From positions 1 through 64,000 of IMG/VR virus record IMGVR_UViG_3300028048_000081: a stretch of 64,000 bases of DNA. The stretch is one strand, 5' to 3'. The notes under the pieces are model-generated. The model did not search any database. It worked only from the letters and a program-made list of their open reading frames with translations, and was not told the DNA's origin. Shown here one piece after another: positions 2,862-24,420 of this stretch (its first letter is position 1; every line of letters begins with the position of its first letter). Both the position numbers and the translations under genes were made by a program. Source of the DNA: a virus. Its lineage: Duplodnaviria; Caudoviricetes.

Positions 2862-3104
2862 ATGACTGATCTTTTATTGATTACCGTTATTGCGGAATGG
2901 GTAGTTATGGCAGCAATGATAGTTGTTGGAATACTTCTTGTTTATGAATGTTCCTGGCGGACTATTGAAAGACACCTCAAAGATAAAGGTTATATACATA
3001 CTATGAATTCAAAATTTGACGACGATACTATTATCATATGGGACCCATCAAAAAACAGATATGTTTCATTATACATAAAACAAGATGATGAAGAAGAATT
3101 CTAA
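2862..3104 (+). CDS. small membrane protein
   Basis: hydrophobic N-terminal helix; GAGGAGG RBS. Confidence 0.7.
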   Translation: MTDLLLITVIAEWVVMAAMIVVGILLVYECSWRTIERHLKDKGYIHTMNSKFDDDTIIIWDPSKNRYVSLYIKQDDEEEF

Positions 3105-3125
3105 ATAACCTTATTTATAGATGCC

Positions 3126-3172
3126 GGACGGGTTTTGTAACATCCTGAAAGCCCCGTCTAAAAATACTAAAA
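3126..3172 (+). promoter_or_regulatory. preQ1-I riboswitch-like element (atypical, longer loop)
   Basis: GACGGG/CCCGTC stem, loop starting TTTTGTAACATCC, A-rich tail TAAAAATACTAA; upstream of a queuosine-precursor transporter. Confidence 0.5.
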
Positions 3173-3189
3173 ATAAAGGAGGTACAAGT

Positions 3190-3219
3190 ATGAATATTAA
3201 AGATTTAACTCCTGATTAA
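3190..3219 (+). CDS. 9-aa leader peptide MNIKDLTPD (uORF or deletion remnant)
   Basis: AAGGAGGT RBS before ATG; stop lies inside a hairpin. Confidence 0.45.
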   Translation: MNIKDLTPD

Positions 3220-3245
3220 TACTATTGTGTTATCAGGAATTTTTT
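3210..3245 (+). terminator. attenuator-like hairpin plus T tract
   Basis: TCCTGAT...ATCAGGA followed by ATTTTTT. Confidence 0.45.
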
Positions 3246-3270
3246 ATGTGTTTAAGATAAGGAGTATAAT

Positions 3271-4014
3271 ATGAGAAAAATAGGATTATTAGAACAGACA
3301 AAAGACGCTCTCAGAGCAGTACCTGGATTAGTTACATCTATATTCATACTTTCTATAGTAGTAATGAATCTTCTTGCAAATAAGTCAGTATTCAATGTAC
3401 CTTGGCTTGCTGCAACTTCGGGAGTATTTGTATCCTGGGTATCTTTTCTCTGTATGGATTCAGTATGTAAACGATTCGGATATGTTGCGGCGACACTTTT
3501 AAATACTGTTGCTATGGTTGTCAGTCTTGCTACTGCAATTCTTATTATGATTATTATGAAAGTTCCTGGTGTATGGGCAGCCAGTTTTTCTAGTACTGAT
3601 CCTGAAGTTTCAAATGCTATAAATACAAGTTTAGATGTTACATTTTCTTCTGCATGGTACATTATAGTAGGATCTTCCCTTGCAATGTTTTTAGGTGGCG
3701 TAGTAAATACAATAATGAATCATATTGTAGGGGTAAAATTGGATAATCAAGGAACATATAAAGAATTTGCTATAAGAAGTGTTGTTTCTACTGCGCTAGG
3801 TCAATTTACAGATAATTTTGTATTTGGACTTTTTGTTTCTCATTTCTTCTTTGGTTGGACAATGACACAAGTCATTATGTGTTCATTCTTTATGATGATT
3901 CTGGAACTTGTTTTTGAAGTAGTTTTTACACCTGTTGGATACCATGTTTCCAAAATGTGGAAGAAAGAGAAGGTGGGAGAAGAATATATCAAAAAATATG
4001 ATGTTCAGGAGTAA
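3271..4014 (+). CDS. queuosine-precursor (preQ0/preQ1) transporter, Vut_1/YhhQ-like
   Basis: multi-pass membrane protein with MNLLANK and RSVVSTALGQFTDNFVF motifs. Confidence 0.8.
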   Translation: MRKIGLLEQTKDALRAVPGLVTSIFILSIVVMNLLANKSVFNVPWLAATSGVFVSWVSFLCMDSVCKRFGYVAATLLNTVAMVVSLATAILIMIIMKVPGVWAASFSSTDPEVSNAINTSLDVTFSSAWYIIVGSSLAMFLGGVVNTIMNHIVGVKLDNQGTYKEFAIRSVVSTALGQFTDNFVFGLFVSHFFFGWTMTQVIMCSFFMMILELVFEVVFTPVGYHVSKMWKKEKVGEEYIKKYDVQE

Positions 4015-4033
4015 TTAGTATTAGGAGGAAAAG

Positions 4034-5506
4034 ATGAACCTTGAGAATTTATCGGGACTTCAGATAGGTAAACTTGTAAATGACGGAATCATTAAACCTA
4101 CGGAAGTTATTGAGTATTTCAAAGATAGAGTAGAAAAAAGAGATAAATCAATAAACGCTTTCACCTATACAAAATTTGATGAGGCATTTGATGAAGCAAT
4201 TAAACTAGAAGAAAGATTGAAATCAAATGAATATGTTGGACCATTTGCTGGAGTTCCTGTTGCATTAAAAGATTTTCTACCTTCTAAAAAGGGTTGGCAG
4301 AATTCTCATGGAGGAGTCAAATCTCTTATTCGTATAGATGATGCAGATTCTGAGTTTTGTAAATCTGCTGAGAAATTAGGGGCGATACCAATAGGAAAAA
4401 CTAATGCCCCTGCATTTGGGTTCAGCGGAGCATGCCAGAATAAACTGTATGGAGCAACAAGAAACCCGTTCAATACAGATTATACTTGCGGAGGATCTTC
4501 AGGTGGGACTGCTGCCGCTGTAAGTGACGGATTGATTGCTTTTGGAGAAGGCGGAGATGCAGGAGGATCTATCCGAATTCCTTCTGGATGGTGCAATCTA
4601 TTTGGTTTCAAACCGTCATTAGGAACAGTTCCTAGTTATTGTAGACCCGATGCATGGACAGCAACTCATCCTTATTGCTTCAATGGGTGTTTGACAAAAA
4701 CTGTTGAAGATAGTGCAATGATGCTCAACTCAATGGCTCATTTTGATCCAAGAGATCCTATAAGCTTGCCTATTAATTCTAGAAAAGATTTCTATGAATT
4801 AATGAAACGACATATAAAGGATATGAAGATAGGATTTACATATGATTTTGATATGTATCCTGTTGATCCAGAAGTTGCAAAAGCAATAGATGAAACAATC
4901 AAACAGATACGCTTTACAGGTGCTAAAGTAGAACATGTACATTTCAACTTTAAACATACATTAGAAGAAATAATGTTTTGCTGGGCATGGTCAATATCTG
5001 TCGATACTGCATTGGATCTAAGTATGTGGAAGGAACAAGGGCTAGATTTGATCAAAGATCACAGAGACGAACTTCCCGAAGAATTTATTCATTACAATGA
5101 AGTTGCAGCGGATGCAAACATATTCTCTTTTAGAAAATTTAATGAAATAAGAACTGATATACTTGATAATTTTGAGGATAAATTTGAAGATTATGATCTT
5201 ATAATATCTCCTACTGCTTGCTGCCCTCCAATGAAAATAGAGGATGAAGGTAAGATAAAAGAAGTTAACGGAACAATTATGAATCCAGATTACTCATTCA
5301 TAGAATTTGGGGAAACTCCTATGGTCAATTTTGTAGGGTATCCTGCAGCATCTGTTCCTTCAGGATTAATTTATGATAATCTTCCGACAGGTATGCAAGT
5401 TATAGGAAGAAAATATCATGATGAAGATGTTCTTTCTCTTTCCTATACAATTGAACAGATAAAACCTTGGTCTTACAACATTCCAAATGACAGAAAATTA
5501 GATTAA
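4034..5506 (+). CDS. amidase-signature family amidase (GatA-like)
   Basis: GVPVALKD, GKTN, GGSSGG, DAGGSIRIP: intact Lys-Ser-Ser triad motifs. Confidence 0.92.
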   Translation: MNLENLSGLQIGKLVNDGIIKPTEVIEYFKDRVEKRDKSINAFTYTKFDEAFDEAIKLEERLKSNEYVGPFAGVPVALKDFLPSKKGWQNSHGGVKSLIRIDDADSEFCKSAEKLGAIPIGKTNAPAFGFSGACQNKLYGATRNPFNTDYTCGGSSGGTAAAVSDGLIAFGEGGDAGGSIRIPSGWCNLFGFKPSLGTVPSYCRPDAWTATHPYCFNGCLTKTVEDSAMMLNSMAHFDPRDPISLPINSRKDFYELMKRHIKDMKIGFTYDFDMYPVDPEVAKAIDETIKQIRFTGAKVEHVHFNFKHTLEEIMFCWAWSISVDTALDLSMWKEQGLDLIKDHRDELPEEFIHYNEVAADANIFSFRKFNEIRTDILDNFEDKFEDYDLIISPTACCPPMKIEDEGKIKEVNGTIMNPDYSFIEFGETPMVNFVGYPAASVPSGLIYDNLPTGMQVIGRKYHDEDVLSLSYTIEQIKPWSYNIPNDRKLD

Positions 5507-5578
5507 TCACTACTATTCAATCTATATTTATTTTGAACCCAACCTTCTATATGTGTATATAGGAGGCTGGGTCTATTT

Positions 5579-6022
5579 ATGAAATTTTTGAAAATACCAG
5601 AAATAGAAATAACAGATACAATATTATGTTCTAAGAAATTTAGATCCTTCATAAAAATATTTGCTTCTAGTTCTAGAGATTTAACTAGAGATATTGTAAG
5701 AGTTAAATCTTCTAATGTTTGGGGATATAATATTAACATAAGAAAAAATGGGGATAGTACTGGTGATGTATATGTTCAGTTTAAAGGAGATAAAGGAGGA
5801 CCTGGGGACATATATGTGTATTATGATGTTCCGGTAGATATATATAGGCGTTGGCAATCGGCTCCCAGTAAAGGTCACTATTTCTGGAAATATATAAGAG
5901 GTAAATATCAATATTCTAAATTAACTGGGGATAGAAAGACAAAGATGAAAGGTGGGGTAACATCACCTCAATCTATATCTAGGACTCCAAGTGAAGAAGA
6001 AGAACCATCAGAAGCAAGTTAA
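5579..6022 (+). CDS. KTSC-domain protein
   Basis: VKSSNV...YVYYDVP...APSKGHYFWKYIRGKYQY. Confidence 0.75.
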   Translation: MKFLKIPEIEITDTILCSKKFRSFIKIFASSSRDLTRDIVRVKSSNVWGYNINIRKNGDSTGDVYVQFKGDKGGPGDIYVYYDVPVDIYRRWQSAPSKGHYFWKYIRGKYQYSKLTGDRKTKMKGGVTSPQSISRTPSEEEEPSEAS

Positions 6023-6046
6023 TATTATTTTGAGGAGGTAATTTGA

Positions 6047-6988
6047 ATGAAAGGGTTTGATATCAGTTATTGGCAAGGAGACCATAGCGTTTCGGATTTC
6101 AAAAAAGCAAAAGAGAAAAAATGGGAATTTGTGTTTATTCGTATAAGTTACAATTGCCCTGCTTCTCCGGATTCAAAATTTGAAAAGAACTATTCTGCAG
6201 CAATAAAAGCAGGAATGAAGGTAGGCGTATATCACTATTCTAAAGCAACATCTATTGCTAAAGCAAAATCAGAAGCACAATCTGTTTTAAGTATACTGAA
6301 AAAGAGAAAGTTACAGTGCCCAGTATTCTTTGATTGCGAAGATTCTGTTCAAAAGAGACTTGGAAAATCTAGACTGAAGAAAATATGTGAAGAATTCTGC
6401 AGAATAGTAGAAGAGAATGGATATCAAGCAGGAGTATATTCTTCTTATGATTTCTTAACTAATAAGATAGATAAGATTTCAGATAAGTATATGATATGGC
6501 TTGCACAATACCCGAAAGCAACCTATAAGGGGAGATATGAAATACATCAATATTCTAGTTCCGGATCTGTTCCTGGATTTGGAGATTCCATTGATGTAGA
6601 TAAATCAGATAAATTAAAATTTGGAGATTATCCTGTAAATAAGAAAACAACAAGCAAGAAAAAGGAAACTAAGAAAACAACAAGCAAGAAAACGACAAGC
6701 AAGAAAACAAAATCTTCGTCTAAAAAGAAAGAAGTTACAGAATCAATAATAAAAGCAGTTATTGACGGAAAATATGGTAATGGAGATGACAGAAAGAAAA
6801 ATCTTGAAAAAGACGGATATGATTACAAGAAGGTTCAAGATGCAGTTACACTTAGAGTAGTAGCACAAGATGTCATTTCCGGAAAATATGGTAACGGATT
6901 AATTAGAAAACTTAGACTTAAGAGAAAGGGATATGATCCGGAGAAAATTCAGAAAGAAGTAATCAAGCTTCTAAATAAGAAAAAATGA
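6047..6988 (+). CDS. endolysin, GH25 muramidase with two CW_7 (Cpl-7) repeats
   Basis: GFDISYWQG, FFDCED, HQYSS; GKYGNG repeats; Lys/Thr-rich linker. Confidence 0.9.
   Translation: MKGFDISYWQGDHSVSDFKKAKEKKWEFVFIRISYNCPASPDSKFEKNYSAAIKAGMKVGVYHYSKATSIAKAKSEAQSVLSILKKRKLQCPVFFDCEDSVQKRLGKSRLKKICEEFCRIVEENGYQAGVYSSYDFLTNKIDKISDKYMIWLAQYPKATYKGRYEIHQYSSSGSVPGFGDSIDVDKSDKLKFGDYPVNKKTTSKKKETKKTTSKKTTSKKTKSSSKKKEVTESIIKAVIDGKYGNGDDRKKNLEKDGYDYKKVQDAVTLRVVAQDVISGKYGNGLIRKLRLKRKGYDPEKIQKEVIKLLNKKK
6641..6712 (+). repeat. imperfect tandem repeats encoding the KKTTS linker
   Basis: AAGAAAACAACAAGC-type unit recurs about three times. Confidence 0.7.
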
Positions 6989-20087: not shown

Positions 20088-21641
20088 ATGGGATTATTTT
20101 CTTCTGAAGATATCAATAAAATAAATGAAGTTGCGTTAAAAAGTAAATCAAAATTTGATGCACCAAGAATTCAATCAGATCGTGTTTCAGATGAAATAAA
20201 TTCAGCATCTGAAAGAGTTTTGGAATATTTCAAGGATTCTCCTGCAATACTTATTGATTCAAAGGAAAAACTGCATGATTATGTAGATGGAATATTGGAA
20301 TGTGGGTATGCAGGAATAGATACAGAAACTACAGGTCTGGATAGAATAAATGATACAATTGTAGGTGCATCATTATACTATCCAGGATCTTCAGAGTGTT
20401 ATATCCCGATGAAACATCTTACGCCTATATTTGATACTGTAAGAGATCATCAATTGACATATGAAGAGGTAGGATCGGAACTTCAAAGAATTGCAGATAG
20501 TGATGTAAAGTTAATATTTGCAAATGCTGATTTCGACTTGTCTATGATTTATAAAGATTTGAAAGTAGATCTGAATGATAGATGTTATTATGATGTTATA
20601 CTTGCCTGGCGTTGTTTGAAAGAGGATGAAAGGGACAATGCCTTGAAAGTCCTTTATAATAAGTATGTTATGAAAGGGAAGGGAGATCCTATGAAATTTA
20701 CTGATTTCTTTTCCCCAAAATTGTTTCCATATAGTAAACCAGAAGTTGCAATGCTTTATGCTGCAAATGATGCAAAAATAACATATGATTTATTTAAATG
20801 GCAATTACCTTATGTCACTAAAACAAACGATAAGTGTAAAAAAGCACATCTTGAGGGAATAGCAGATCTTATATGGAATCTAGAACTTCCGTTGATAAAA
20901 GTGTGTCAGATGATGCACAGAAACGGAATGTATTTAGATAAAAATACCGCAAGGATATTGATGAAGCGATACAATGATGAGTATTCATCTGAAATGAATA
21001 AATTGTATGATATGGTTGATGAACTTATATCTGATACACCATATCAAAATACAGTTAATTCTAAGAGACCATTTAATTCTGGTAAAGATTTCAATCCAAA
21101 TTCTACTCCTCATGTTAAGTATCTAGTATATACTATGCTTAAAGTTGAGAAGCAAGGAAACAAAGAAAGTACAGATAAATCTGTATTAGCAGATTTAGAT
21201 CTTCCAGTTACAAATCAGATACTTAAAGTTAGAAGTTTGAAAACACTTATAAGTACATTTGTAGATAAGCTACCAGAAGCAACTACTCCGGATAGTAGAA
21301 TTCACGCACAGTTTAAACAGATTGGAGCAAGTACAGGAAGATTTTCAAGTGCAGATCCTAACCTTCAGAACATTCCATCTCATGCAGATGATATAAGACA
21401 TATGTTTAGAGCAACTCCTGCAACGAATAAGGAGTTAGATTGCGAAGTAGATGATGATGAAATATCTGTAAAATTATATTCATATGATTATGTTAATACT
21501 AAAGACGGTTTAAAGCAAGTTAATAAACTGTCTGTAGGAGATCAAGTATTGTTAAAAAATGATGGCGAGGAGGTGTATAAGTATGTCCAAGAAGTGGACA
21601 ATTCCGATTCAGACGACTCCATATATAATGTTGTCTTCTGA
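20088..21641 (+). CDS. polA: DNA polymerase I-like, N-terminal subunit (3'-5' exonuclease, thumb, palm start) with Hint-like tail
   Basis: DTETTG, YAANDA, TGRFSSADPNLQNIP, IRHMFRA; stops before motif A. Confidence 0.9.
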   Translation: MGLFSSEDINKINEVALKSKSKFDAPRIQSDRVSDEINSASERVLEYFKDSPAILIDSKEKLHDYVDGILECGYAGIDTETTGLDRINDTIVGASLYYPGSSECYIPMKHLTPIFDTVRDHQLTYEEVGSELQRIADSDVKLIFANADFDLSMIYKDLKVDLNDRCYYDVILAWRCLKEDERDNALKVLYNKYVMKGKGDPMKFTDFFSPKLFPYSKPEVAMLYAANDAKITYDLFKWQLPYVTKTNDKCKKAHLEGIADLIWNLELPLIKVCQMMHRNGMYLDKNTARILMKRYNDEYSSEMNKLYDMVDELISDTPYQNTVNSKRPFNSGKDFNPNSTPHVKYLVYTMLKVEKQGNKESTDKSVLADLDLPVTNQILKVRSLKTLISTFVDKLPEATTPDSRIHAQFKQIGASTGRFSSADPNLQNIPSHADDIRHMFRATPATNKELDCEVDDDEISVKLYSYDYVNTKDGLKQVNKLSVGDQVLLKNDGEEVYKYVQEVDNSDSDDSIYNVVF

Positions 21642-21648
21642 CTACAGT
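21583..21648 (+). CDS. polA: DNA polymerase C-terminal subunit, exon 1 (MSKKWTIPIQTTPYIMLSSDYS)
   Basis: GAGGAGGTG RBS at 21567-21575; encodes the DYS of motif A; different frame from the upstream ORF. Confidence 0.8.
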
Positions 21649-22695
21649 AGGTAACAGTGCTGTAGTAAAACTCCCTTAATTCGGTGAAATCCTATTGGGA
21701 CAATACCGAGCAAGTATATCCTGAGAACAATAACCTTATATCATCTTGTAATCAATAATCAGGAGGTGGATATGATAATATACAAGATTGAAAATAAGGT
21801 TACAGGAAAAGTGTATATAGGCCAAACACGGAGAACACTTGAACAAAGGTTTAAAGAGCATATCAATGCTGCTGAACGAGGAGAAGATTTCTATATAGGC
21901 CAAGCTATTCGCAAGTATGGAAAATCCAATTTTGAATGTTCTATAATTGATGAAGTAGATAATTTAGATGATCTCAATAAATTAGAGCAGTATTATATTC
22001 ATAAGTATGAAAGTGATACTAAAGGATATAATCTTGCCCCTGGAGGATATTCAAATACTATGGATTCGGATAAAGTTAAGATCCATCATGATGAAGTAAT
22101 GCGAACAGATGAAGTTAGAAATAAGATATCTCAAACTCTTAAGAAACGAATATTAGAAGAAGGTCGTAGAGATGAATATCTTAGAAATTTGAGAACAGGA
22201 TTTCAAAGATATCTTAAATCTAATAAGTTTAAAGAGGATTGTAAAAAGAGGCATCTATCTCCTGAACACTATAAAGCATTGAATGATGCAAAAAATAAAT
22301 CTGTATATTGTATTGATATTGATGGTAATGAAGTTGCAAGTTTTTCTCGTGTTAAAGATGCTGCAATATGGTGGATGAATTCTGGATACAAAGTCAAAAG
22401 TTATGATCAATTGATGGATAGAATAAAAGAATCATCTAAGAATAATAAATATATACACGGCCTCAAATGGATATATCGTGTGTAGAGACTATCGAAAACT
22501 AGAAATTTACATTCGCAGAAATGCGTAAATAGATGTATATCTAGGTAAGTTGAAATAATCAAGTGAGTAGAGTACATTTCAAGCGAAATGGAAATGGGGA
22601 GGTTCATGATATTTGGTAGTAGAATATCATGTTCAAGATATAGTCCGACACTCTCAGTAATGAGAGAGATGCGTAGCGAACATCAAAACAGAAAG
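21649..22695 (+). mobile_element. group I intron (IA2-like) with embedded homing endonuclease
   Basis: P1 ACTACAGT/GCTGTAGT with U-G; AATTCGGTGAAA, AATACCGAGCAAG, GTAGAGACTA, AAGATATAGTCCG elements; terminal G; splicing restores DYS-AQEPR. Confidence 0.9.
21772..22485 (+). CDS. intron-encoded GIY-YIG homing endonuclease
   Basis: IIYKIENKVTGKVYIGQT...RFKEH...LEQYYI...GYN; own AGGAGG RBS and AACCTT motif at 21732. Confidence 0.9.
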   Translation: MIIYKIENKVTGKVYIGQTRRTLEQRFKEHINAAERGEDFYIGQAIRKYGKSNFECSIIDEVDNLDDLNKLEQYYIHKYESDTKGYNLAPGGYSNTMDSDKVKIHHDEVMRTDEVRNKISQTLKKRILEEGRRDEYLRNLRTGFQRYLKSNKFKEDCKKRHLSPEHYKALNDAKNKSVYCIDIDGNEVASFSRVKDAAIWWMNSGYKVKSYDQLMDRIKESSKNNKYIHGLKWIYRV

Positions 22696-23913
22696 GCTCA
22701 AGAACCTCGGATAACTGCATTTGTAAGTCAAGATCAAAAGATGATAAAGTCTTTCCAAGAAGGAAAAGATATATATGCAAGTATAGCAAGTATGGCATTT
22801 GGAGTACCATATGAAAATTGTTTGGAGTTCAATCCTATAACAGGGGAGAATCAACCTGATGGAAAAGAAAGAAGAGGACAGGCAAAATTCATTGTATTGG
22901 GAATTACCTATGGGCGTTCTGTACCTTCTATAGCTGATCAGTTATTTGGTAAAGACGATACAATGTCTGAAGAAACTAAGTTGAAAAAAGCACAGAAGAT
23001 ATATGATGCAGTTCTTAATGCTTTTCCAAACTTAAGAAGTTTCATGATAAGTTCTCAAAAATTTGCAAAGAAACATGGATATACAGAAACAATATTGAAA
23101 CGTAGACGTCATATTCCAGATATGCAGTTACCTGAGTTTGAATTTAAACCTATGAAAGGTTATGTTAATCCAGATGTTGACCCATTAGATTCGGAAACTT
23201 TAAAGAATAAAGATACTATTCCGCAGTATGTTGTGGATAGTTTAGATCACGAACTTAAAAGTTATAAATATTTTGGGCAGATAGCAAGAAGAATTCGGGA
23301 GTTGAACGAAGAACACATAAAAGTAATAAATAACAGGCCTAAGATAACAGATGCATCAAGAAAAGTTATAAATTCGATTGTTCAAGGTTCTGCTGCTGAC
23401 CAAACTAAACTTGCAATATTGATGTTAGAGAACAATGAAGAGTGGAAAAAGATGGGTGGAAGATTGTTAGTACCTGTTCATGATGAATTGATATGTGAAG
23501 TTCCACTTGATAAATGGGAAGAAGGCGGAAAACTTGTAAGCGATATTATGAAAGAGGCTGCGAGTTATCTTCCGTTTGACAGTAAGTGCGATGTTACAAC
23601 TACACTGAGATGGTATGGACTTGAGTATCCTTGCGTATATAAGAAACCAGAAAGTATTGAGGATATTTCTAAACTTTCCGAAGATGAAATAAAGTGGATT
23701 CAGTATCACCTAATAGAACTTGAGTATCTTCTACCTATAGTTAAGAACGAAGATGGATCTCCATTGTTAGGAGATGCTGCGGTAGGTGTTAATGGAAAAT
23801 ATACTTTAGAATTACAGAACCTAGTAGAAGAATATATTAGAACTAGAAATATATCTTCTGATAAGTTTATTGACCATATAGATAAGGAAGTTGTATATGG
23901 CCAAATAAGTTAG
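22696..23913 (+). CDS. polA: DNA polymerase C-terminal subunit, exon 2
   Basis: AQEPR, RGQAKFIVLGITYG (motif B), QGSAAD, VHDE (motif C). Confidence 0.9.
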   Translation, partial: AQEPRITAFVSQDQKMIKSFQEGKDIYASIASMAFGVPYENCLEFNPITGENQPDGKERRGQAKFIVLGITYGRSVPSIADQLFGKDDTMSEETKLKKAQKIYDAVLNAFPNLRSFMISSQKFAKKHGYTETILKRRRHIPDMQLPEFEFKPMKGYVNPDVDPLDSETLKNKDTIPQYVVDSLDHELKSYKYFGQIARRIRELNEEHIKVINNRPKITDASRKVINSIVQGSAADQTKLAILMLENNEEWKKMGGRLLVPVHDELICEVPLDKWEEGGKLVSDIMKEAASYLPFDSKCDVTTTLRWYGLEYPCVYKKPESIEDISKLSEDEIKWIQYHLIELEYLLPIVKNEDGSPLLGDAAVGVNGKYTLELQNLVEEYIRTRNISSDKFIDHIDKEVVYGQIS

Positions 23914-24024: not shown

Positions 24025-24420
24025 ATGGAAAGTAAATGGTATGATATAATCGGGTATGAAGGACTCTATCAGATTAGTGATGAAAAATTAGTTAGAAGTT
24101 TGGATAGAGTTATAAACGGAAGAAAGTTTTCTGGGAAGATGTTAAGTGGTCCTAATTTGTCTAAGGATGTTAAAGCAATAAAGTTGTCTAAAGACGGAAA
24201 TAGGAAAACATTTTCTCTTAATGAATTGTTTGAACTTCGTTGCAAAGATGATGTAAAAACAAAAGTAAAGCGGTCTGTAAAGATAAAATGTGTAGATGAT
24301 GGAAATATTTTTTCAAGCGAAACAGAAGCCGCAAAATATTATGGAATGCATGTTTCTTCAGTTAGCGATTGTATACATGACGGAAAGCATCATTGTGGTC
24401 ATGCTTTTGAACGTCTTTAA
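24025..24420 (+). CDS. NUMOD4 + NUMOD1-like DNA-binding protein lacking an HNH core
   Basis: WYDIIGYEGLYQISD...VRSLDR; C-terminal FSSETEAAKYYG. Confidence 0.7.
   Translation: MESKWYDIIGYEGLYQISDEKLVRSLDRVINGRKFSGKMLSGPNLSKDVKAIKLSKDGNRKTFSLNELFELRCKDDVKTKVKRSVKIKCVDDGNIFSSETEAAKYYGMHVSSVSDCIHDGKHHCGHAFERL

Follow-up and report, generated by a model that had tools for sequence, protein, structure and literature searches.

A family A DNA polymerase probably made as two chains

The window considered here, the first 64 kb of a 124,241-bp phage genome (single contig; IMG/VR record IMGVR_UViG_3300028048_000081), encodes a family A DNA polymerase with a 3′–5′ exonuclease. The enzyme is divided between two open reading frames (ORF1 and ORF2; Table 1), and a two-gene, two-chain polymerase is strongly supported. 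The wider reading, in which this two-chain enzyme carries a splicing-dead relic of a Hint domain and the relic belongs to a mobile cassette, is considered quite probable.

In this arrangement, chain 1 (517 amino acids, aa) would supply the exonuclease, the thumb, and the first palm strand. The motif A strand, the fingers, and motif C would come with chain 2 (427 aa after group I splicing), whose translation would start independently at the ATG at position 21583 from a Shine–Dalgarno (SD) sequence that lies inside the coding sequence of chain 1. The break lies within an insert of ~90 residues that sits on the palm hairpin tip, immediately ahead of motif A, such that most of the insert, a small barrel, ends chain 1, and its last strand, WTIPIQT, begins chain 2. 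The insert is most likely a shrunken intein remnant (the Hint N-lobe plus the last strand) left by a gene fracture associated with a homing endonuclease. The chains would assemble non-covalently through the ordinary polymerase interfaces, with strand pairing within the relic helping, and the insert, the recoded motif A codons, and the adjoining intron would form a cassette that passes from phage to phage, probably through recombination stimulated by an endonuclease.

Profile matches to the family A DNA polymerase (PF00476) and the 3′–5′ exonuclease (PF01612) extend across both halves. ORF1 covers positions 26–152 of the Pfam DNA_pol_A profile and exon 2 of ORF2 matches from position 163, and the 10 positions absent between the halves correspond to a hidden exon. 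The exonuclease motifs DTET, NADFD, and YAAND can be read directly in the translations of ORF1 and ORF2, as can the polymerase motifs A (DYSxxEPR), B (RRxxAKxxxxGxxYG), and C (VHDE), and both halves are colinear with the uninterrupted relative P0005 (859 aa) and with relative L084. Among cultured phage records, none exceeds 42% identity.

The hidden exon is the first of the two exons of ORF2. The +1 frame is open from 21556, the ATG lies 9 nucleotides (nt) after GGAGG, and the exon ends ..SSDYS at T21648; exon 2 then opens with GCT CAA GAA (AQEPR), and motif A is complete only once the two exons are spliced. Uninterrupted relatives such as P0005 read FRATPGY(A/V)M(I/L)SSDYSAQEPR, and the intron-less L084 also reads SSDYSAQEPR without a break. 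As the uninterrupted relatives read through the motif A strand, the hidden exon supplies exactly the missing strand and the splice junction is correct.

An earlier note, made from the sequence of the window alone, had placed motif A in another frame behind a ribosome-binding site and an ATG at 21583, and GAGGAGGTG, the start, and the 22 codons are all found at those positions. It had also ended ORF1 at 21641 with ~75 non-polymerase residues, in agreement with the TGA at 21639–21641 and the 75-aa tail that follows ..IRHMFRA, where FRA ends at residue 442. Its statement that removal of the intron does not fuse the halves is borne out as well, as the frames stay different after splicing; its estimate of the chain lengths (~517 and ~428 aa) holds for the first chain, and the second is predicted to have 427 aa. 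Annotation pipelines are expected to miss the 22-codon exon and to label the polymerase as truncated or as a pseudogene.

Table 1. Features of the split polymerase locus in the window, and arrangements of the break among relatives
Feature	Position or locus	Strand	Remarks
ORF1	20088..21641	+	517 aa; exonuclease and N-terminal part of DNA_pol_A; PF01612 3e-12, PF00476 1e-25
Insert segment (tail)	21414..21638	+	Linker strand and small β-barrel resembling Hint N-lobe; without splicing residues
Shine–Dalgarno GAGGAGGTG for ORF2	21567..21575	+	Inside ORF1 codons Glu-Glu-Val
Dual-coding overlap, 59 nt	21583..21641	+	ORF1 in frame 0, ORF2 in frame +1
ORF2 exon 1	21583..21648	+	22 codons; N-terminal β-strand WTIPIQT and motif A strand YIMLSSDYS
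Group I intron	21649..22695	+	1047 nt; endonuclease ORF in peripheral (P6) loop
GIY-YIG homing endonuclease ORF	21766..22485	+	PF01541 2.3e-11, 44.3 bits against cut-off 22.6
ORF2 exon 2	22696..23913	+	405 codons and stop; rest of motif A, motifs B and C, C-terminal extension; PF00476 2.9e-42
Overlap type	Window, L008, L013, L018, L082–L084, L086, L088		
Abutting type	L009		TGA; TTG start follows after 4 nt
Abutting type	L026		TAA, immediately followed by ATG codon in same frame; SD-preceded start ATG 21 nt further
Spaced type	L022		170-nt gap
Spaced type	L045		0.9-kb gap with HNH_3 endonuclease ORF, 8.7e-14
Spaced type	L014/L015		1.8-kb gap with 606-aa ORF, DUF7487 and Mom-like region
Continuous one-frame insert	L020, P0059/P0064, P0102		~90-residue insert

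Conservation of the split

The split is conserved in dozens of diverged relatives, which are gut and rumen phages known from separate assemblies of cattle, pig, and other gut samples. With residues 300–517 of ORF1 as the query, dozens of proteins of 511–543 aa span the tail at 50–72% identity, and uninterrupted forms of 855–862 aa without the tail are also found. When 117 clusters were classified, ~90 were split, ~24 had no insert, and 3 carried a continuous insert. With the second half of a relative as the query, ~45 clusters start 13–20 residues before SSDYS at a homologous Met or Leu and share the N-terminal pattern M-S-x-x-[WYF]-x-[ILV]-x-[VI]-x-[TS]-P. All of the relatives are broken at one structural point, directly before the strand YQIKH / WTIPIQ, and the public gene calls for L084 (ORF1 at 3001–4578 and ORF2 at 4520–5785) give the same 59-nt overlap with no intron. 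The conservation of the split and of the ribosome-binding site, which the earlier note had put forward as a check, is thus found among these homologs.

An assembly or sequencing indel in a gene that is really continuous, an artefact that the note had allowed for, would not be expected to give identical frames, overlap, and start again and again in assemblies made independently from a range of samples; the same split in the separate cattle, pig, and other gut assemblies excludes it, and its probability is regarded as negligible.

Five arrangements occur among the relatives (OTHER ARRANGEMENTS), namely overlapping, abutting, spaced, continuous, and insert-free (Table 1). An endonuclease gene is absent between the halves in the window, where the halves overlap, and is present as an HNH_3 ORF in L045; L014 holds another ORF at this place. 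The latter (L014:5048-6868; 606 aa) overlaps both halves by ATGA-type junctions, contains Cys-rich repeats, matches DUF7487 (4.6e-19) and, weakly, a Mom-like region (2e-4), and does not belong to a recognised homing endonuclease family. A further distant continuous insert, suggested by a longer tblastn match (MW202554), was rejected, as the translation shows none.

Translation of the second half seems to rely on its own initiation signal. Of 13 split loci, 11 have a strong SD sequence 7–12 nt 5′ of the start, which is an ATG or a TTG. The window uses rare codons for it, GAG-GAG-GTG, as GAG accounts for only 25% of Glu codons and GTG for 8% of Val codons in neighbouring genes. Forms with the insert in one continuous frame do exist, but they are few, and most relatives are split. 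These forms, those with an endonuclease gene at the break, and the behaviour of the insert as a mobile cassette linked to the intron all went unnoticed in the earlier note.

A different solution would be a programmed +1 or −2 frameshift, or a ribosome hop, in the 59-nt overlap, yielding one fused chain and leaving the ORF2 start minor or unused. The frames do overlap, and a sequence such as TTC TGA C would give ..NVVF-DYS.., so that a +1 shift at the ORF1 stop would put a hydrophobic strand directly before the catalytic Asp. However, the window, L082–L084, L008, L013, and L018 have neither a slippery site nor a stimulator in common, and the overlap TGA is missing in the closest relative, L082, whose ORF1 continues as far as a TAG where the intron begins. 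The SD sequence and the start are conserved, as is the N-terminal strand of chain 2, which would be lost by a late shift. A shift could not join halves that abut in the same frame or that are spaced by 0.17–1.8 kb, and frameshifting is thereby ruled out as a general solution. Two chains appear to be that general solution across the relatives, and frameshifting, one of the alternatives of the earlier note, is judged quite improbable given the lack of a conserved shift site and the existence of non-overlapping relatives.

Nature of the insert

The insert has been modelled both as a continuous segment and as the tail of chain 1. The continuous form of L020 (122 residues including the flanking palm strands) is predicted by AlphaFold2 (AF2) to be all-β, with a mean predicted local distance difference test (pLDDT) of 83.7 and values above 90 for residues 11–100; its residues 93–98, homologous to the N-terminal strand of chain 2, are confidently placed (pLDDT ~92). 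The window tail (83 residues) reaches a pLDDT of 84, and the barrel and the last strand, IYNVV, are confident. The first 18 residues of the tail model are unstructured, yet form a strand in the continuous model, which is consistent with a missing partner strand. The first fold used an alignment (A2) in which MAFFT misplaced the last 4–8 tail residues, and the second fold (A6) is free of that error.

In an exhaustive structural search of the window model against 48,161 chains, inteins occupy ranks 1–4 (Z 5.8–6.5; root-mean-square deviation, rmsd, 1.3–1.9 Å over 50–54 residues). These are the PolII mini-intein (Z 6.5, rmsd 1.3 Å over 50 residues), MchDnaB-1 (Z 6.2), gp41-1 (Z 6.1, 24% identity), and PI-SceI (Z 5.8), with eight further inteins lower in the list. 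Intein residue 1 is aligned to residue 28 of the model, a Lys, in keeping with the Hint N-terminal pattern with Lys in place of Cys1 that had been read from the sequence in the earlier note. The continuous model scores Z 5–6.8 against inteins, and as the aligned ranges cover whole inteins, its last strand maps to the final strand of the intein. A structure search of the Atlas also returned Hint_2, hedgehog, and PT-HINT clusters. At the level of sequence profiles, the Pfam Hint_2 family matches 13 of 76 relatives (best E 7.6e-5) and Vint matches one relative; the window tail itself scores 14.2 bits with Hint_2 against a cut-off of 28.4 (E 0.059). An hhalign comparison of 91 tails with the mini-inteins of relatives aligned tail columns 25–74 to intein columns 7–62 (P 4.4e-4, probability 34%).

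Several results weigh against a firm assignment of the insert to the Hint fold. Every Z score lies below 8 (maximum 7.2), a range common for small barrels, and the barrels of RND adaptors and phage tail-tip domains score alike in the structure search. Foldseek returned no match in the PDB at E <= 0.001, and a profile of 14 tails run against the PDB placed a designed OB protein, Ufd1, and ataxin ahead, with gp41-1 reaching only E 0.7.

An alternative is that the insert is a functional accessory domain unrelated to inteins, for example a docking site for a clamp, a helicase, or another replisome partner, and that the split is incidental. Such a domain would account for a small barrel that is conserved, confidently modelled, and placed at the outer end of a palm hairpin, for sequence-profile matches that favour OB- or SH3-like barrels over inteins, and for the existence of continuous forms. 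However, close polymerases with and without the insert coexist, with flanks at ~96–97% DNA identity; in L045 and L014 the break is precisely where an endonuclease gene is located; and intein N-lobes top the structural list for the window model. An accessory domain is therefore held to be unlikely, although it is the alternative given the most weight. The intein relic of the earlier note thus stands as a resemblance that is correct in register, whereas Hint ancestry is not established by Z scores below 8 and by profile searches that favour other barrels; descent of the insert from a Hint (intein N-lobe) domain is fairly probable.

The residues needed for splicing are absent, as the note had stated in pointing to the missing His-Asn end. 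The Cys1/Ser1 nucleophile is replaced by Lys in the window and by K, T, E, P, or N in relatives; the block B TxxH is absent from the tails and from the continuous forms; and the C-terminal Asn is absent, +1 being preceded by Q in the window and by K, R, E, or V in relatives, but in no case by Asn. Thr or Ser is kept at the +1 position. The insert is accordingly predicted to be incapable of splicing.

Atypical protein trans-splicing, in which the tail and the 10-residue leader would ligate FRA.. to T-P-Y.., had been proposed at ..IQ/T. In its favour are the likeness of the segment to a Hint N-lobe, a conserved Thr or Ser at +1, and, in one subgroup, a His two residues before +1 (I-K-H-K/T). Against this, the position aligned to Cys1 is variable and the TxxH and terminal Asn are lacking, as described above; the relic has ~85 residues, compared with at least ~130 for a Hint domain; a conserved linker Cys is absent in several relatives; and the continuous in-frame forms retain the insert. 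Trans-splicing is therefore considered very improbable, even more so than frameshifting.

Real inteins, with Cys1 and a terminal HN, occur in P0042, P0050, P0083, P0086, L021, L025, and L075, as mini forms of 141–157 aa and as HNH_3-bearing forms of ~335 aa. They reside at two other sites of the gene (GAR|C..SHN|TGR and TGRM|C..VHN|SS), and the proteins that contain them have the tail as well; derivation of the tail from these inteins was rejected on both grounds.

Proposed assembly of the two chains

The proposal that the relic acts as a clasp was examined by co-folding two segments of L084, its 77-aa tail and the N-terminal 38 residues of its ORF2, each supplied as an alignment. The pair scored 0.59, compared with 0.02 for the best of 3 controls; at least 86% of contacts coincide between runs, and the pLDDT of the partner is at least 54. 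In the calibration of this procedure, the mark was reached by 58 of 80 solved complexes and by 2 of 110 mismatched pairs, although just 7 of the 80, and both mismatches, scored 0.60 or less. As the palm strand FRA was left out of chain 1, the signal does not reflect a textbook hairpin.

Other considerations tell against the clasp and the two-chain reading. The co-fold is weakly supportive and was run on a relative, L084, rather than on the window pair. Near-identical polymerases without the insert exist, which makes the domain dispensable to the enzyme as such, and the halves might assemble without the insert. A minor frameshifted fusion product is also possible.

The earlier note had combined a non-splicing relic with a role as a dimerisation clasp, and had suggested the co-fold of the tail with the start of chain 2 as a check. 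The first part holds; the second receives weak support from the L084 pair, in which complementation of the tail by the strand of chain 2 is plausible. Taken with the models, a role of the relic as a clasp between the chains is slightly favoured.

Apparent dual coding and possible healing of the split

The overlap seems to be used in both frames. The end of ORF1 in the overlap type (..S-L/I-C/Y-N-V-V/I-F) is the other-frame reading of the motif A codons, and it is homologous to a strand that is encoded separately in other arrangements, ..APYTLITMREV in the abutting L009 and ..APNNLITFKIV in the continuous L020. Given the local codon usage, ORF1 would stay open across the overlap by chance with a probability of 0.10–0.59 at each locus; multiplied for nine loci, this comes to ~1e-6, with the reservation that they are not wholly independent of one another. 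All of the aligned tails (~76 of ~76) are full length. As the overlap is kept open and the tails are all full length, both frames seem to be under selection.

A continuous form may show how such a split can be healed. In L085 (4517–4645), self-similarity at an offset of 66 nt reaches 14 of 18 matches, and the first copy of the repeat is read like the ORF1 tail and the second like the start of ORF2. L020 shows no offset self-similarity at that threshold. The pattern in L085 is suggestive of healing by tandem duplication of the overlap.

The most far-reaching version of the argument, in which a splicing-dead half-intein serves as an obligatory non-covalent clasp, its last two strands are dual-coded in 59 nt, and the whole unit of relic, recoded motif A, and group I intron spreads among gut phages as a homing cassette that can be healed by tandem duplication of the overlap, is tentative and, taken in all its parts together, somewhat doubtful.

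Apparent mobility of the insert, and the group I intron

The insert comes and goes among closely related polymerases. In a tree of the N-terminal 440 residues, the distribution of split and insert-free forms needs at least 8 changes on well-supported branches, and the window protein is sister to an insert-free one (support 99). The split L086 and the insert-free L087 share ~97% DNA identity up to the insertion point. L088 and L089 are ~96% identical on both sides of one block of ~630 nt, which runs from after the FRA-Thr codon exactly to the 3′ splice site of the intron and within which the motif A codons are recoded. The window and L090 differ by the same kind of block, with flanks that are ~80% identical. 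The insert alone is found in L084, L009, and L013, and the intron alone in L019 and L075. The presence and absence of the insert, usually together with the intron, among near-identical polymerases indicate that it behaves as a mobile cassette, and the frequent joint travel of insert and intron would be expected if endonuclease-stimulated recombination co-converts them.

The ends of the insert have features of their own. The split forms P0051 and P0083 retain TPGY where the insert begins and T/S-P-x-Y where it ends, and in the window a direct repeat, ACTCC, occurs at 21414 and 21616; taken together, they look like a short target duplication flanking the insert. A 202-nt bypass between the two repeats, giving FRATP-Y.., was considered and rejected, as the stretch to be skipped is a conserved, confidently folding coding sequence.

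The intron of the window is an ordinary group I intron. T precedes its 5′ splice site and G22695 ends it. An orthologous intron of 287 nt without a homing endonuclease gene (HEG) occupies the same site in L082 (4562–4848) and matches RF00028 with 54.7 bits against a gathering threshold of 50 (E 2e-13). The core of the window intron aligns with it at high identity and differs by an insertion of ~760 nt in the P6 hairpin. An Rfam scan of the window did not call the intron, because of the inserted ORF of ~760 nt. Scanning eight relatives at the Rfam gathering threshold returned only tRNAs, and the short L019 intron scored only 14 bits. Splicing from 21649 to 22695, which had been predicted to join exon 1 to AQEPR, is thus supported by the L082 orthologue and by the intron-less relatives. 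The endonuclease ORF within the intron is listed from a GTG at 21766; an ATG at 21772, 6 nt after AGGAGG, is the likelier start.

With at least four kinds of mobile insertion, the polymerase gene is a hot spot. L082 holds a second, downstream insertion (5282–6100) with a GIY-YIG/NUMOD3 ORF, and P0059 and P0064 go out of frame after ..AKT(V/I)LLG, which suggests a further intron site in motif B. Directly after the polymerase gene of the window, a 131-aa ORF (24025–24420, + strand) contains NUMOD4 (2.6e-5) and I-HmuI NUMOD-like (3e-4) motifs, and no nuclease domain was matched in it. Counterparts also lie 3′ of the polymerase in L090 and L082, and the ORF may be the remnant of a free-standing endonuclease. 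Upstream of the polymerase, at ~1–3 kb, clusters of 4–5 tRNA genes are found in L045 (530–2326) and L022 (574–1069), with Rfam tRNA scores of 46–72 bits.

Comparison with known systems

The locus described here appears to show how an essential replication enzyme can withstand being severed by selfish DNA although nothing is spliced at the break. Should assembly depend on the relic, the latter would represent a natural and compact (~75 + 10 residues) counterpart of engineered inactive split-intein dimerisers. The overlapping, abutting, spaced, continuous, and insert-free alleles form a rare series for how fractured genes arise, spread, and heal, and a stretch of 59 nt that apparently encodes structural strands in two frames is a useful study case.

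Group I introns with GIY-YIG endonucleases are found in phage DNA polymerase genes (RF00028), to which the one at DYS|AQEPR belongs as an ordinary example. Unlike the usual RF00028 polymerase introns, however, it lies 30 nt downstream of a split and moves together with the insert as a block in at least one pair of relatives.

Split phage polymerases have been mentioned without a mechanism (PMC10580990). The split gp43 family B polymerases of T4-related phages consist of two chains, sometimes with a GIY-YIG gene between the halves (Petrov and Karam, cited in PMC2677866). Split gp43 resembles the present case as a phage replicative polymerase that is made from two genes and works as two chains, and differs from it in polymerase family and in break point. 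The window polymerase adds a putative relic and two overlapping frames at the break. Neither an intein-like relic nor overlapping frames are known for split gp43.

In phage T4, MobA splits the topoisomerase gene, and gene 60 is read by a 50-nt translational bypass (bioRxiv 10.1101/2022.08.31.505936). There, as here, a mobile endonuclease cassette interrupts an essential gene and brings along a means of keeping its product working; that means is bypass in T4, in contrast to the separate initiation and protein-level relic proposed for the window.

In fractured genes, active split inteins flank a free-standing homing endonuclease, and the model for their origin includes loss of the endonuclease (Dassa et al. 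2009, PMC2677866). The order of an N-terminal half with a Hint-like piece, an endonuclease, and a Hint-like piece with a C-terminal half is also seen in L045 (HNH_3) and in L014, and phage replication genes are affected in both systems. However, those inteins trans-splice and have their splicing blocks intact, whereas the window and its relatives lack Cys1, TxxH, and the terminal Asn, and have on the C side a single strand of ~10 residues.

The likeness to NrdA of phage Aeh1 lies in an essential phage enzyme that is encoded by two genes, in C- and N-terminal tails that come from a mobile element, and in the absence of RNA or protein splicing at the break. In Aeh1, nrdA is split by mobE, and the element-derived tails that NrdA-a and NrdA-b carry are required for assembly (Crona et al. 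2010, PMC3045599). Here, the enzyme is a family A polymerase and the tail is a folded, probably Hint-derived barrel, whose role in assembly, known in Aeh1, would be the corresponding one; in addition, the endonuclease at the break is gone from the window, and the genes overlap by 59 nt in two frames. New with respect to these published cases are the family A polymerase, the splicing-dead relic of ~75 + ~10 residues, the apparent dual coding, and the range of alleles from HEG-bearing to healed.

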